NCBI GenBank assembly: GCA_963712855.1 | Contig: CAVQJN010000001.1 | Location: forward strand, 358,612 to 422,611 | Length of the DNA stretch: 64,000 nucleotides | Reading direction: 5' to 3' | From: Thermoanaerobaculia bacterium | GTDB lineage: Bacteria; Acidobacteriota; Thermoanaerobaculia; Multivoradales; JAGPDF01 | Part shown: piece by piece, positions 50,050-61,646 of the stretch | Numbering within the stretch: position 1 is the stretch's first letter | Layout of the letters: every line of letters begins with the position of its first letter | Translations under genes and position numbers: made by a program | Notes under the pieces: generated by a model | What the model was told of the DNA's origin: nothing | The model's database searches: none | The model's input: only the letters and a program-made list of their open reading frames with translations

Positions 50050-50777
50050 ATGGCCGCACGAGAACGGCAGGAAGCCAGGTCGGAAGCGTCCATCGAAGCG
50101 GTGCTCGACGCCGGCCTGGAGCTCTTCTCCACCCAGGGTTACCGCGCCACCACCCTGCGTCAGATCGCCGACCACGCGGGCCTTTCGGTCGGCAACATCT
50201 ACCACCACTTTCCCAACAAGCACGCCATTTACCAGAAGCTCATCGAGCGCTACTGGGAGCGGTTGATGGACCCCGAGCTGCCGCTCAACAAGCTGTTCGC
50301 CGCCGTCGACTTCCCCGAGGACCTCGAGCGGATGGCGGTCGCGATCGAGCAGGTGGTCGAGGCCAACTCGGCTCAGATCCTGCTCGTCTACGTCGACGTC
50401 ATCGAGTTCCAGGGCGAGCACATCCGCGCCTTCTACGACGGCATGGCCGAGCGGTTCAAGGCGAACTATGGCCCGCGTTTCGCGGCCCGTGCCAAAACGG
50501 GCGACTTCGTCGCCGGCGCCGACCCGATGGTGGCGGTCATGGTCGCCACACGCTGGCTCTTCTACTTCTTCACGGTCGAAAAGTGCTTCGGCGTGCCGTT
50601 CCATTTCGGGATGACCCCGAAAGAGGCGGTCGCCGAGTTCATTCGCTTGCTTCGCTTCGGGCTCCTCCCTCGTTCCGGGGGCGCCGAGCCCATGAAGGCA
50701 TCCACGAAACGCCCGGGGGAGCTCCGGCGACGACCCAGGACGCGCGCCGCGCGCGGCCGCAAAGGAGAAGAAAGTGA
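50050..50777 (+). CDS. TetR/AcrR family transcriptional regulator; 3' end undefined (no in-frame stop until 51633)
   Basis: RBS GAGGAGG before ATG 50050; N-terminal HTH TLRQIADHAGLSVGNIYHHFPNKHAIY. The reading frame stays open about 860 nt into the downstream receptor gene. A stop in the adjacent frame at 50775..50777 would give an ATGA overlap with the next gene. Confidence 0.6.
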
Positions 50778-53107
50778 TGACACGACGCACCGACCCACGC
50801 ACCATGGCGGGGAGCTCGCTTCCAGGTCGAGCCCTTCTCGTCGCCCTCGCCGCCAGCCTGACCTTCCTCGCGCTGCCCGCCCGCGCCCAGAGCGCCAGCG
50901 ACGACACGCCGAGCCAGGACCAGGCGAAGGAGAAGGAGAAGGAGGTCGCCGCAGCCAAGAAGCTCCCGGTGGCCGGCGCCGAGATCACCGTCACGGCGCG
51001 CAAGCGCGAAGAGAACGTGGAGAAGGTCCCGGTCGCGGTCACCGTGGCGACCGGCGATCAGCTCACCGACCAGGGCGCGCCCGACATCTCCGCCCTGCAG
51101 AACGACGTCCCCAACCTCTCCATCTACGCCGGCCGCAACCAGTCGACCACCCTCACCGTCTTCCTGCGCGGCATCGGTCAGGCCGATCCGCTGTGGGGCG
51201 TCGACCCCGGCGTCGGCCTCTATTTCGACGACGTCTACATCGCGCGTCCGCAAGGCGCGCTGCTCGACGTCTTCGACCTGCAGCGCATCGAAGTGCTGCG
51301 CGGACCGCAGGGCACCCTATACGGCAAGAACACAATCGGCGGCGCCATCAAGTACGTGAGCAAGCCGCTGACCGACCGCCGCGATGGCAAGATCGCGGTC
51401 TCTCCCGGCACCTACAACAACCAGGACATCAAGGCCAGTCTCGGCGGAGCCCTGATTCCCGGCAAGCTGCGCGCCCGGTTCGCCATCGCCTCGCTCAAGC
51501 ACGACGGCTTCGGGCACAACCTCTACACCAACCAGGACGTCTCCGACAAAGACACCCAGGCGGCCCGGCTCGCCTTCGACTGGCTGCCCTCCGACGACGT
51601 GACGGTCCATTTCTCGTTCGACAAGACCCGTGACCGCGCCCACCCCAAGGGCATCACCCGCCTCGCCGCCAACCCGTTCTGCCCGCTCTACCTGGGCACC
51701 ACCTGCCCGCCCAACAACCACATCTTCGACACCCAGAGCGGTCTGGCGCCCAAGAACAGCACCGACTCCGACGGCTCGGCGATGACCGTCGACTGGGACA
51801 TCAGCAAGGCCTGGCGCTTCAAGTCGATCACCGCCTACCGCGAGTCAAACAGCGAGAACAACATCGACTTCGACACCACGCCGGCGCCCATCGCCGACGT
51901 CGCCGCCACCTACTACGATCACCAGACCTCGCAGGAGTTCCAGTTCCTCTATGACGACGGCGGCGCCTTCAACGGCGTGTTCGGCGCCTACTACTTCGAC
52001 GGCAAGGCGGGCGGCCTGGTCAAGAACAACTTCCTGAACCTCCTCTTCGGCACCACCGACGGCTACGTGAAGACCAAGTCCTACGCGCTGTTCGGCGAAG
52101 GCAACTACCACATCAACCCGAAGCTGACCTTCACCCTCGGGGTGCGCGGCACCAAGGAGAAGAAGAACGGCGTGGCGTACAACGCCGGCTACACCGACGC
52201 GACCTTCTCGACCGTCAACGCGGTGACCTCGGACTTCAACAAGAACAAGACCTTCGACTCCCTGGCTCCGCGGATCGGCTTCGACTACCAGTTCACGCCC
52301 GACGTGATGGGATACATCACCGCCAGCCGCGGCTTCAAGAGCGGCGGCTACAACGTGCGCGCCCAGGCGACCGCCTTCCCGCAGTCGGCCGAGCCGTTCA
52401 AGGACGAGATCCTCGATGTCGCCGAGGTCGGCGTGAAGTCGGTGCTCGACGACCGCCACCTGGTCGTCAATGCAGACGTCTTCTACGGCAAGTACAAGGA
52501 CATCCAGGTTTCGACCTTCACGGCCTACGACTCGAACGGCGACGGCAAGGACGACGCCTTCTTCGGCAACTTCCTGAACGCCGGCAACGCCACCATCCAG
52601 GGTGTGGAGCTGGAGTACGACTGGACCTCGCGCGCCGCCGAGTGGTTCGGCGCCTCGGGCTTCCTGAGCTACCTCGACGCCAAGCCGGATTCCTTCCTCG
52701 ATCTGAACCACGACGGCTTCGTCGACACCCAGGTGATCACCAACGCACCCAAGTTCACCGGCTCGCTGAACCTCAACTTCAACGTTCCCGCCTGGGGCGG
52801 CCTGTTCAGCGCCAGCGTCGGGATGAGCCACCGCGACAAGTCGGTGCTCACCAACGAGGGCGGCCCGGACCCGAGAAATCCGACCATCCAGCTGCAGCCG
52901 ATCGTCCAGCCTTCCTACGAGACCTACGACGCCTGGATCGCCTGGCTGTCGCCCAACGCCAAGTGGCGCTATGCGATCAACGGCCGCAACCTCTCCAACG
53001 AGAAGTACCTCACCAACGGCTACAACATCCCGGTGCTGGGCCTCCTGCAGGGCTCCTACGGTGACCCCCGCACGGTGACCGCCACCGTCGAGTACCGGTT
53101 CTTCTGA
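50777..53107 (+). CDS. TonB-dependent outer-membrane receptor
   Basis: RBS AAAGGAG; signal peptide; plug-domain motifs (ITVTA, DISALQNDVPNLSI, IEVLRGPQGTLYGKNTIGGAIKY); C-terminal ...EYRFF aromatic terminus. Confidence 0.85.
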   Translation: MTRRTDPRTMAGSSLPGRALLVALAASLTFLALPARAQSASDDTPSQDQAKEKEKEVAAAKKLPVAGAEITVTARKREENVEKVPVAVTVATGDQLTDQGAPDISALQNDVPNLSIYAGRNQSTTLTVFLRGIGQADPLWGVDPGVGLYFDDVYIARPQGALLDVFDLQRIEVLRGPQGTLYGKNTIGGAIKYVSKPLTDRRDGKIAVSPGTYNNQDIKASLGGALIPGKLRARFAIASLKHDGFGHNLYTNQDVSDKDTQAARLAFDWLPSDDVTVHFSFDKTRDRAHPKGITRLAANPFCPLYLGTTCPPNNHIFDTQSGLAPKNSTDSDGSAMTVDWDISKAWRFKSITAYRESNSENNIDFDTTPAPIADVAATYYDHQTSQEFQFLYDDGGAFNGVFGAYYFDGKAGGLVKNNFLNLLFGTTDGYVKTKSYALFGEGNYHINPKLTFTLGVRGTKEKKNGVAYNAGYTDATFSTVNAVTSDFNKNKTFDSLAPRIGFDYQFTPDVMGYITASRGFKSGGYNVRAQATAFPQSAEPFKDEILDVAEVGVKSVLDDRHLVVNADVFYGKYKDIQVSTFTAYDSNGDGKDDAFFGNFLNAGNATIQGVELEYDWTSRAAEWFGASGFLSYLDAKPDSFLDLNHDGFVDTQVITNAPKFTGSLNLNFNVPAWGGLFSASVGMSHRDKSVLTNEGGPDPRNPTIQLQPIVQPSYETYDAWIAWLSPNAKWRYAINGRNLSNEKYLTNGYNIPVLGLLQGSYGDPRTVTATVEYRFF

Positions 53108-53108
53108 G

Positions 53109-60341: not shown

Positions 60342-60359
60342 AGTCCGAGGAGCCCCTGG

Positions 60360-61646
60360 ATGCCGAATCAGATCCCGAACGCGACCGCGCACGCCGCGCC
60401 CGAGACCGTCTCCCGGTACGCCTGGAGGCTGCTCACCTTCTTCACCCTGCTGAACGTCCTGAACTTCATCGACCGGATCCTGATCGCGGCCCTGGCGCCG
60501 CTGCTGATCGCCGACCTCGGACTGTCGCGCGCCGAGATCGGGCTGCTGGCCGGTTACGGGTTCGTCCTCTTCTACACCTTCGTCGGGCTCTTCCTCGGCC
60601 TCGCCGCCGACCGCTGGCGGCGCATTCCGCTGGTCGCCGCGGGACTGACCCTGTGGAGCGGGATGACGGCGCTCTCCGGCGTCGCCAGGAGCTTCGTGCA
60701 GCTCGCGTTGCCCCGCATCTTCGTCGGGGTGGGCGAAGCGACGCTCACCCCGGCCGCGCTCTCGATGCTGGGCGACGTCTTCCCCGCCGGACGCCTCGCC
60801 ATGGCGAGCGGCATCTACTACGCGGGCATCCCGCTCGGCACCGCGGTGGGCCTGATCGCCTCGAGCTGGATCGCGCCGCACTATGGCTGGCGGGCCTGCT
60901 TCTACGTTCTCGGCGGGTTCGGCCTGGTCGCGGCGGGGGTGCTGCTCCTCTTCCGCGAGCCGGCGCGCCGCGGCGCGCTCGCGAACGCCGAGCGGCCGCC
61001 GCTCGGCCGGCTCGCCATCGACGTCTTCCGCGCCCTCGCGGTGCGCAAGGACCTGGCGCTCACCCTGATCGGCGGATCGCTGCTCTGTTACGGCGCCGGG
61101 GCGGCGCTCCACGCCGTGACCTGGCTCGTCCAGGAGCGTGGCTTCACCTACGCGCACGCCGCCTTCACGGCCGGGGTCATCGCGATCTTCGCGGGCTTCC
61201 TCGGCAATCTCGCGGGCGGCGCCTTCGGCGACTGGTGCGCGCGACGGCGCAAGAACGGTCACCTCTTCAGCCTCATCCCGATGACCCTCTTCTTCACGCC
61301 GATCGGCCTGGTCTTCTACTCGCTGGCGCCCGGCACGCCGCTCTTCTATGCCTGCTGGTTCGTGACCGCGGCGGGCACCTCGGCCTGGTTCGGGCCGCTC
61401 TTCGCGGCGATCCAGGAGCTCTCGCCCAACCACACCCGCGCCTCGACGGTGGCCTTCGCGCTCCTGGTGCTGAACCTGCTCGGGGTGGGACCGGGGCCGC
61501 TCATCACCGGCATGATCGGCGACGCGCACAGCCTGACCGCCGGCCTGCTGTCGAGTCTCGGCGTGGTGGCGCTCGCGGTCGTGCCCTTCTGGCTGGCGCT
61601 GCGCCTCGAGAAGGCGGGCACCCTCGCCCCGGAAGCCGGCGCCTAG
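60360..61646 (+). CDS. MFS transporter
   Basis: 12 predicted TM helices and an MFS signature GLAADRWRRIPL-like motif after TM2. Confidence 0.8.
   Translation: MPNQIPNATAHAAPETVSRYAWRLLTFFTLLNVLNFIDRILIAALAPLLIADLGLSRAEIGLLAGYGFVLFYTFVGLFLGLAADRWRRIPLVAAGLTLWSGMTALSGVARSFVQLALPRIFVGVGEATLTPAALSMLGDVFPAGRLAMASGIYYAGIPLGTAVGLIASSWIAPHYGWRACFYVLGGFGLVAAGVLLLFREPARRGALANAERPPLGRLAIDVFRALAVRKDLALTLIGGSLLCYGAGAALHAVTWLVQERGFTYAHAAFTAGVIAIFAGFLGNLAGGAFGDWCARRRKNGHLFSLIPMTLFFTPIGLVFYSLAPGTPLFYACWFVTAAGTSAWFGPLFAAIQELSPNHTRASTVAFALLVLNLLGVGPGPLITGMIGDAHSLTAGLLSSLGVVALAVVPFWLALRLEKAGTLAPEAGA

Follow-up and report, generated by a model that had tools for sequence, protein, structure and literature searches.

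A conserved Acidobacteriota operon with a Cys-Thr-Tyr KAS III-fold protein and a plausible role in the uptake and catabolism of ester-linked (R)-3-hydroxyalkanoates

The window analysed here, a 64-kb stretch of contig CAVQJN010000001.1 from a Thermoanaerobaculia bacterium (Acidobacteriota), contains a cluster of ten co-directional genes (50050–61646, forward strand) in DNA of ~70% GC. The cluster was delineated by Pfam and by frame analysis of third-codon-position GC (GC3), which backs the reading frames of its genes. The first gene (50050–50777) encodes a TetR-family repressor (TetR_N, 62 bits) with an apparent 1-nt indel at its 3' end. It is followed by a TonB-dependent outer-membrane receptor (50777–53107) with Plug and TonB_dep_Rec_b-barrel domains of the 22-strand barrel type, and by a classical, FabG/PhaB-like short-chain dehydrogenase/reductase (SDR) of predicted NAD type (53109–53888; adh_short, with adh_short_C2 at 231 bits). 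The fourth gene (53909–54913) encodes a KAS III-fold protein with ACP_syn_III and ACP_syn_III_C domains, referred to here as KS-like. Three α/β-hydrolases (ABHs), each with an Abhydrolase_1 domain and the GxSxG serine, alternate with the remaining genes. ABH1 (54910–55866; GNSMG), which carries an N-terminal signal peptide, precedes the AMP-forming acyl-CoA ligase LIG (55863–57401; AMP-binding, 313 bits). The cytoplasmic ABH2 (57398–58222; GTSFG) precedes THL, a thiolase of the SCP-x type (58265–59467; Thiolase_N with thiolase_C_1), and the cytoplasmic ABH3 (59475–60341; GISYG) precedes a major facilitator superfamily (MFS) permease of the organic-anion/aromatic-acid symporter type (60360–61646; MFS_1, 146 bits). 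Pfam confirms every gene family named at these positions in a first-pass annotation of this DNA, and the 4-nt overlaps it reported at 54910 (GTGA), 55863 (ATGA) and 57398 (GTGA) are present in the sequence. The remaining intergenic gaps are 1, 20, 42, 7 and 18 nt. THL most likely starts at the GTG at 58265, which is preceded by a GGGAGGGA site, and ABH3 at the ATG at 59475.

Relatives of the KS-like protein occur in at least 562 species-representative Acidobacteriota genomes. The best 80 of these are 69–90% identical and belong to Thermoanaerobaculia, Holophagae (including Geothrix fermentans), Vicinamibacterales, Terriglobia and Bryobacterales, while the 120 best metagenomic hits are 75–90% identical and are named Thermoanaerobaculia, Holophagales or Acidobacteria. 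Synteny was assessed in 84 Acidobacteriota loci by running tblastn with the ten proteins of the cluster and by grouping all other open reading frames into clusters. A GC3-based gene caller put several genes on the wrong strand at 70% GC, and the synteny rests mainly on tblastn. Most of the 84 loci share the order TetR-receptor-SDR-KS-ABH1-(LIP)-LIG-(ABH2)-(THL-ABH3)-(ABH2)-(SSF or MFS), where LIP is an extra secreted gene, with a few rearranged variants. Recurrence on this scale is far beyond chance and bears out the proposal that the genes form one unit; independent distribution among relatives, which the annotation had named as the observation that would speak against it, is the opposite of what was found. 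A receptor always occupies its slot but is drawn from three non-orthologous families, with CarboxypepD_reg-type receptors in other loci and an AlgE-like barrel in one. The transporter is a sodium:solute symporter (SSF) in 10 loci and an MFS protein in 6, one substituting for the other, and SSF also stands in for MFS in most loci of the wider clade described below. Thiolase is present in 32 of the 84 loci, and many keep the KS-like gene without it. At its smallest, in locus L002, the cluster is reduced to receptor, KS-like protein and ligase. No member of the operon is better conserved than the KS-like protein, the signature of the module, and CoA activation and an ABH consistently go with it.

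Alignment of the KS-like protein with E. coli FabH shows that Cys112 is kept (C117), while His244 is replaced by T256 and Asn274 by Y286. The alignment is anchored by the invariant Gln of FTQVR around T256 and the Gly and Thr of GYTGS around Y286, and the Cys-Thr-Tyr pattern holds in all 14 orthologues aligned. A GTDSPD motif is also present. Pfam recognises the fold (PF08545, 57.5 bits; PF08541, 72.9 bits), but the FabH models are not reached (PRK09352, 193.5 vs a cut-off of 249; TIGR00747, 160.8 vs 292.1), and nine clade members likewise fall under the curated FabH cut-offs. Identity to FabHs is ~30%. Among solved structures the protein matches FabHs (1e-42), PqsD (7e-33) and ChlB3 (1.6e-12), with matches to OleA (3row, 3s21, 4ku3 and others) limited to residues 21–133 (113 residues) at ~1e-17. 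A Foldseek search with its AlphaFold model (pLDDT 76) returned only FabHs at a TM-score of ~0.8, which adds no functional information. The wider distribution was surveyed by scanning 1.84 billion cluster representatives in full with HMMER, with the three catalytic positions counted in 85 full-length hits. Nearly all hits down to E ~1e-45 (31–60% identity) are Cys-Thr-Tyr, the few exceptions being mostly truncated or chimeric, and canonical Cys-His-Asn FabHs appear only beneath this level. The clade spans several phyla, is separate from FabH and is covered by no NCBIfam model. To our knowledge, a Cys-Thr-Tyr constellation has no earlier description.

The label of FabH-like ketosynthase therefore holds for the fold, given the TM-score to FabHs, but not for the Cys-His-Asn triad. 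The protein lies outside housekeeping FabH, as the first-pass annotation had supposed, and no acyl carrier protein (ACP) or fab genes are found in the cluster or its flanks, nor in the related loci inspected. In FabH mutagenesis attributed to Davies et al. in 2000, the H244A and N274A variants reportedly keep transacylation and lose decarboxylation. Since the Cys is kept but the His and Asn are replaced, decarboxylative condensation of malonyl units is not expected, and judging from its residues the KS-like protein is almost certainly not a ketoacyl-ACP synthase III.

The loss of the triad also removes the basis of an earlier comparison with alkylquinolone, dialkylresorcinol and pyrone biosynthesis, and the protein scores far under the cut-offs of the DarB (NF053539, 31 bits vs 550) and StlD/DarB (NF005293, 40 vs 450) models as well as those of FabH. 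A small-molecule pathway of this kind, or an OleABCD-like route to olefins or β-lactones, would suit the tight gene coupling, and the TonB receptor and MFS permease could serve metabolite export and re-uptake. The thiolase-fold, ABH, AMP-ligase and SDR proteins also represent the same four superfamilies as OleA, OleB, OleC and OleD. However, PqsD, DarB, pyrone synthases and OleA keep the His and Asn that the KS-like protein lacks, the OleA match is partial (1e-17 vs 1e-42 for FabH), and the SDR appears to be of the classical NAD type and not the extended, NADPH-dependent 3β-HSD type of OleD. No ACP, acyltransferase or type III polyketide synthase accompanies the cluster, SSF importers substitute for the MFS permease, and depolymerases are embedded in related operons. 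Biosynthesis is considered extremely unlikely. OleABCD in particular was rejected because His and Asn are missing, the match to OleA is weak and partial and the SDR appears to be of the classical NAD type; as to a counterpart of OleC, the nearest relatives of LIG are ordinary acyl-CoA ligases. Biotin (BioZ/BioH) and menaquinone (MenE/MenH) readings were also discarded, their weak model hits all lying far under cut-off.

The KS-like protein resembles FabH and its CoA-using relatives PqsD, DarB, NphT7 and OleA in fold, in length and in a Cys within the same helix-turn, but differs in the exchange of His for Thr and Asn for Tyr across the clade, in having no linked ACP and in scoring under curated FabH cut-offs. 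Archaeal thiolase-HMGCS, PhlACB and BbsAB resemble the cluster in that a related SCP-x-type thiolase is encoded with a KAS III/HMGCS-fold protein. Unlike in these DUF35 complexes, no DUF35 (OB-fold, zinc-ribbon) domain is found in the ten cluster proteins, whose genes are separated by gaps of at most 42 nt. An obligate complex of the KS-like protein and the thiolase is unlikely because many loci keep the KS-like gene without a thiolase, and a thiolase/HMGCS/DUF35 or PhlACB-like complex was rejected on this point and the missing DUF35 gene. Defining features of FabH, PqsD/DarB, OleABCD and the DUF35 complexes are missing, and the cluster is not a member of any of these groups. By analogy, the chemistry most compatible with a Cys-only site would be that of KAS III-like acyltransferases (CerJ, ChlB6/ChlB3 and DpsC-type enzymes), in which the thiolase fold works without condensation and supplies a nucleophile for acyl transfer between thioester and hydroxyl. 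Those enzymes, unlike the KS-like protein, belong to polyketide clusters, and they keep the His plus an Asp or Asn. The KS-like protein should still form an acyl-enzyme via Cys117, and from its sequence the transfer or cleavage of acyl groups is its probable activity. It may perform a thiolase-like cleavage or cleave oligomer-CoA esters thiolytically, the latter with a saving of ATP. The dedicated thiolase that is often also present argues against the thiolase-like role.

A KAS III-fold protein reduced to acyl transfer could also serve as an acyl-CoA:ACP transacylase in a salvage route, in which the ligase would activate fatty acids or 3-hydroxy fatty acids taken up from outside for use in the organism's own lipids. 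FabH has a Cys-dependent acyl-CoA:ACP transacylase half-reaction that is independent of the His and Asn and outlasts their loss, which favours this idea, as does the constant pairing of KS-like protein and ligase, the sole cluster genes beside the receptor in L002/L003. However, ACP, PlsX/Y/C and fab genes are unlinked in every locus inspected, and the NAD-type SDR, thiolases and depolymerases indicate degradation. The module also occurs in Caldilinea (Chloroflexota), which should lack lipopolysaccharide and so have no lipid A demand for 3-hydroxy acids. Lipid salvage is regarded as quite improbable.

The wider Cys-Thr-Tyr clade retains a common set of partners in varied arrangements. In the 31 loci with at least 4 kb on each side, a ligase always adjoins the KS-like gene, with an SDR or MaoC in 29, an ABH in 26 and an SSF or MFS transporter in 24. 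SDR and MaoC occur together in a single locus, and both FabG-type SDRs and MaoC/PhaJ hydratases use (R)-3-hydroxyacyl thioesters. The dominant order among 80 metagenome loci is SDR-KS-SSF-LIG-ABH. Variants include TetR-ABH-MaoC-KS-LIG in Caldilinea, ABH-SSF-LIG-SDR-KS-receptor in Calditrichota, TetR-ABH-EstPHB-LIG-receptor-ABH-KS-LIG-MaoC-MFS in Blastocatellia, and a Bacteroidota-like locus with a thiolase and SDR-KS-SSF-LIG-x-AlgE-like barrel-ABH. These arrangements suggest a shared logic in which a carboxylate is imported, made into a CoA ester and then handled by an enzyme of the SDR or MaoC type. In Geothrix a butyryl-CoA:acetate-type CoA-transferase and MaoC stand in for ligase and SDR, which points to a short-chain acid as the probable substrate.

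Several of the variant loci have further features of their own. In L071 (Geothrix fermentans DSM 14018, 4790–10993), L033, L072, L040, L041 and L083, a second KAS III-fold protein, a PRK06840-family paralogue (415 bits; Cys-His-His), is encoded directly next to the Cys-Thr-Tyr gene or paired with a ligase of its own. A TTEE motif occupies the position of the HMG-CoA synthase Glu, and in Geothrix the paralogue is accompanied by MaoC, CoA-transferase and a double TetR. In L104 (low GC, probably Bacteroidota) the AlgE-like barrel (Alginate_exp, 14597–16261) takes the place of the TonB receptor in an SDR-KS-SSF-LIG-ABH module, and the divergent genes upstream encode a TrmB regulator and a canonical thiolase of the PhaA-like kind. 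A literature search found nothing relevant on PRK06840, on 8WEU/8WEV or on KAS III-like enzymes lacking the triad.

The receptor reaches the cut-off of no curated siderophore, haem or B12 model. A siderophore system was rejected, as NRPS and NIS genes are missing, control is by TetR and the receptor scores under every siderophore cut-off. The SDR (259 aa) scores 269 bits on FabG and 195 bits on AcAcCoA_reduct, both under cut-off. Across the module's SDRs a Trp-Asp pair (W-D) at the end of β2 is near-invariant, and only a few wider-clade members have a basic residue in their Gly motif. An Asp at the end of β2 is the signature of NAD(H) in SDR classification, FabG and PhaB being NADPH-dependent. 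The near-invariant Asp marks the SDR as probably NAD-type, which fits oxidation rather than the reduction catalysed by FabG and PhaB, and a role as (R)-3-hydroxyacyl-CoA dehydrogenase is proposed. ABH1 begins with a positively charged and hydrophobic segment and an Ala-X-Ala motif. As this is a Sec-type signal peptide, the protein is placed outside the cytoplasm, and its orthologues carry a signal peptide or transmembrane anchor. Its neighbours in the PDB are esterases, BphD and the membrane-anchored PlaF, and it is a candidate periplasmic oligomer esterase. THL has as structural neighbours 7yvy, trypanosomatid SCP2-thiolases, the archaeal thiolase 6esq (9e-41), BbsB (3e-33) and PhlC (4e-19). 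A second, canonical thiolase (Thiolase_N, 218 bits; 4026–5162, forward strand) is encoded 46 kb upstream and is 29% identical to THL.

LIG scores 452 bits on PRK06187 (cut-off 476), and its best structural matches are 8weu/8wev, a fatty-acyl/feruloyl-CoA synthetase (1e-115), and FadD13 (2e-91). The closest models of the MFS protein, which is proposed to be an inner-membrane importer, are D-galactonate and aromatic acid:H+ symporters. These matches raise the question of hydroxycinnamate ester (feruloyl, chlorogenic) catabolism, with esterases, a feruloyl-CoA synthetase-like ligase and β-oxidative shortening of the side chain. Besides 8wev, deposited as a feruloyl-CoA synthetase, and the nearness of the permease to aromatic-acid and PcaK-type symporters, such a route is favoured by weak matches of the ABHs to PcaD and BphD-type models. 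The Esterase_PHB family is also related to esterase families that include feruloyl esterases. However, the route needs a hydratase and a dehydrogenase together, and the single locus with both SDR and MaoC, as well as the lack of a hydratase in the window, speaks against it. Vanillate and protocatechuate genes are not linked, and the PhaZ7 homologues of related operons are not feruloyl esterases. Hydroxycinnamate catabolism is therefore held to be very unlikely.

The most direct link to a substrate comes from depolymerases encoded within related operons. LIP, which is nested within the operon in 12 of the 84 orthologous loci (between ABH1 and LIG in L034, with gaps of 22–95 nt), is a full-length homologue of PhaZ7 (PDB 2vtv, 3e-91, 309 bits) that keeps the AHSLG box as well as the Asp and His. 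PhaZ7 is an extracellular depolymerase of amorphous polyhydroxybutyrate (PHB). In addition, a Blastocatellia-type esterase passes the type 1 e_dPHAscl model for extracellular depolymerases of short-chain-length polyhydroxyalkanoates (scl-PHA; 283 bits vs a cut-off of 150), and a type-1 scl-PHA depolymerase is found in 6 of 83 sister loci. A Lipase_2-like gene of Caldilinea was discounted as depolymerase evidence, as it is not close to PhaZ7. Two unrelated depolymerase families in the same module provide, among the sequence-based indications, the strongest substrate clue. PhaJ-type hydratases tie PHA breakdown to β-oxidation through (R)-3-hydroxyacyl-CoA (PMC4823750).

Taken with the exchange of SSF and MFS transporters, the three receptor types and the NAD-type SDR, the depolymerases of relatives favour one of the two options first considered for this locus, a catabolic route for a TonB-imported substrate. 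It is very likely that the operon is catabolic and serves uptake rather than biosynthesis. With somewhat more confidence than doubt, we propose that it is a TetR-repressed operon of Acidobacteriota for the uptake and catabolism of ester-linked (R)-3-hydroxyalkanoates, the likeliest substrates being oligomers and monomers of the bacterial storage polyester PHB/PHA. The flux direction and each enzyme reaction are deduced from sequence, and the substrate is one that we infer from relatives. Under this proposal, extracellular depolymerases, encoded in the operon of some relatives and not in the window, would cut the polymer, and the TonB receptor would carry oligomers through the outer membrane. 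Secreted ABH1 would trim the oligomers in the periplasm, and the MFS permease, or SSF in relatives, would import the acid for conversion to its CoA thioester by the ligase. The NAD-type FabG-like SDR would oxidise (R)-3-hydroxyacyl-CoA to 3-ketoacyl-CoA, or in relatives a MaoC hydratase would form enoyl-CoA, and the thiolase would release acetyl-CoA. Possible substrates of ABH2 and ABH3 are imported dimers, which they would hydrolyse, or thioesters. TetR would bind a 16-bp palindrome over the promoter and be relieved by a pathway intermediate.

A number of observations weigh against PHB or PHA as the substrate. No PHB depolymerase is encoded in the 64-kb window, and the assignment is one of guilt by association because just 12 of the 84 orthologous loci and 6 of the 83 sister loci encode a depolymerase. 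LIP itself scores 395 bits on NF050060 (e_nPHAscl), just under the cut-off of 450. The closest solved relative of LIG is a feruloyl/fatty-acyl-CoA synthetase and not a CoA ligase for acetoacetate or 3-hydroxybutyrate, the FabG model gives the SDR a higher score than do the 3-hydroxybutyrate dehydrogenase and PhaB models, and the three ABHs match PHA-depolymerase models only far under cut-off. None of the ten window proteins passes a curated PHA-pathway model, and a literature search found no paper or experiment on the module. The PHB model also gives no reason for the KAS III-fold protein being the most conserved member, nor for the presence of three hydrolases.

Some of these points would suit a different source of hydroxy or ordinary fatty acids, namely some other ester-linked lipid or polyester such as acyloxyacyl lipids, rhamnolipid-type dimers, cutin- or suberin-like polyesters, or phospho- or neutral lipids. 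The hydrolases would then act as lipases, and ligase, SDR and thiolase as a short R-specific β-oxidation. The position of LIG within the medium/long-chain fatty-acid ligase family (PRK06187, FadD13, FadD5) favours such substrates, as do the likeness of ABH1 to the phospholipase PlaF and generic esterases, and the missing PHB depolymerase in most loci, the window included. SCP-x thiolases typically take bulky or 2-branched 3-ketoacyl-CoAs, and the thiolase type also points this way. However, the sole secreted depolymerases inside the operons belong to two short-chain-PHA families, the Geothrix variant has a short-chain CoA-transferase, and the cluster lacks the acyl-CoA dehydrogenase and S-hydratase of a full β-oxidation. 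Uptake of such lipids is a possible, if unlikely, alternative to (R)-3-hydroxyalkanoate catabolism.

Classical extracellular PHB utilisation involves a PhaZ depolymerase, a 3-hydroxybutyrate-oligomer hydrolase, 3-hydroxybutyrate dehydrogenase, acetoacetate activation and a thiolase. The operon shares with it the depolymerases of related operons, the esterases, SDR, CoA activation and thiolase, and acetyl-CoA as the presumed end product. At the family level, a FabG/PhaB-like SDR or MaoC is found in 29 of 31 loci and thiolase is present. Unlike in the classical pathway, the acid is apparently activated first and oxidised as a CoA ester, given an SDR that is FabG/PhaB-like and a ligase that does not belong to the acetoacetyl-CoA synthetase type. 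The operon further differs in its TonB receptor and dedicated symporter, TetR control and added KAS III-fold protein, and in the window having no depolymerase. An R-specific SDR or MaoC-type hydratase followed by an SCP-x-type thiolase also recalls peroxisomal, D-specific β-oxidation (MFE-2 and SCP-x thiolase) and PhaJ-dependent PHA mobilisation. In contrast to the MFE-2 system, the proteins are bacterial and unfused, and SDR and hydratase are alternatives, not partners. CoA activation first, TonB-dependent uptake, TetR control and the Cys-Thr-Tyr enzyme are four features that set the operon apart from known PHB utilisation and R-specific β-oxidation. Taken whole, the cluster still matches no characterised one, as the first-pass annotation had remarked.

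Regulation by TetR is suggested by the DNA upstream of the cluster. A σ70-like promoter with 10 of 12 consensus matches, TTGTCA (49978–49983) and GATAAT (50001–50006) separated by 17 nt, lies upstream of the TetR gene and is the sole promoter-like site across 49700–62200 (12.5 kb). We infer that the whole unit is transcribed from it. The operator search called for earlier yielded conserved candidate palindromes at this promoter (49986–50025). The split palindrome CCGAAC-N4-GTTCGG (49986–50001) occupies the spacer between the −35 and −10 boxes, and AACCAAGCGTTCGGTT (50010–50025) directly follows the −10 box. With up to 2 mismatches allowed, the consensus AACCGAACGTTCGGTT lies in the 150 nt ahead of TetR in 23 of 51 loci and has no other match in the 981 kb of locus DNA, and a TTGACA box with the same spacing to the palindrome is present in most related loci. 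The window holds one match (50010–50025) against a mean of 0.16 in shuffled sequence, which is not significant for the window alone, so that the case for an operator rests on conservation. On this comparative basis the 16-bp palindrome is a credible candidate for an autoregulatory TetR operator. TetR orthologues of 31–76% identity occupy the same position in related loci. A perfect hairpin, GCCGCA-G-TGCGGC (49965–49977), abuts the −35 box and may either terminate the upstream extracytoplasmic function (ECF) sigma factor gene or be a further regulatory site. Loci L001, L006, L007 and L077 share the hairpin in this position, and L005, L009 and L010 have variants of it.

The 3' end of the TetR gene appears disrupted. 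Its frame is open from 50050 to a stop at 51633 (1584 nt), running into the receptor gene, and TetR relatives end 10–45 aa past a conserved '...LPR'. The expected tail is found in the neighbouring frame, where TGA at 50775–50777 overlaps the receptor ATG, and a 1-nt indel near 50690–50720, probably in a G-run, is therefore likely as either an assembly error or a real frameshift. Comparable TetR-receptor run-ons are seen in L004/L013 and L074.

Three of the genes flanking the operon, those for the ECF sigma factor, a Ser/Thr kinase and an FAD-dependent monooxygenase, are not conserved beside it in other loci. Upstream, the ECF sigma factor gene (49194–49904, forward strand) lies divergent to a gene for a 958-aa Ser/Thr kinase with TPR repeats (46306–49182, reverse strand). 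Downstream are a UDG gene and a gene for an FAD-dependent monooxygenase (61643–63003, reverse strand) convergent with that of the MFS permease. The monooxygenase is split over two frames (FAD_binding_3 positions 3–263 in 61897–63003 and 280–346 in 61643–62938), and is either a frameshifted pseudogene or the site of a second assembly indel. Further upstream, a stretch of low GC (30000–36700; 58–64% vs ~70%) encodes an HNH endonuclease (31514–32908) and an NB-ARC/STAND ATPase (33721–35820). An aldehyde dehydrogenase fragment (35846–36703, reverse strand), covering only model positions 12–212, adjoins these genes, and the stretch has the look of a defence-type island whose insertion cut a gene short.

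Acidobacteriota rank with the most abundant bacteria of soil and sediment, yet a role has been assigned to few of their conserved operons. Polyesters such as PHB make up a large carbon pool in microbial necromass and are also the basis of biodegradable plastics. If the proposed function is correct, at least 562 species-level genomes would carry, in this operon, a marker of the ability to scavenge what polyester breakdown releases. As no depolymerase is encoded nearby, the organism of the window may then rely on its neighbours to break down the polymer or have the enzyme encoded elsewhere in its genome. The novelty lies mainly in the Cys-Thr-Tyr enzyme clade. Its members are annotated everywhere as ketoacyl-ACP synthase III, and both this annotation and genome-mining calls that score the loci as biosynthetic need correcting. 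A bolder and rather improbable idea is that the Cys-Thr-Tyr proteins are a new functional class of the thiolase superfamily, performing CoA-dependent thiolysis of 3-hydroxyalkanoate oligomer-CoA in which the ester carbonyl would pass to Cys117 and then to CoA. One activated oligomer would then give several (R)-3-hydroxyacyl-CoA without further ATP, and this would represent an unrecognised, energy-saving form of extracellular polyester scavenging in hundreds of Acidobacteriota species and several other phyla. The clade is in any case a tractable target for new thiolase-fold chemistry.

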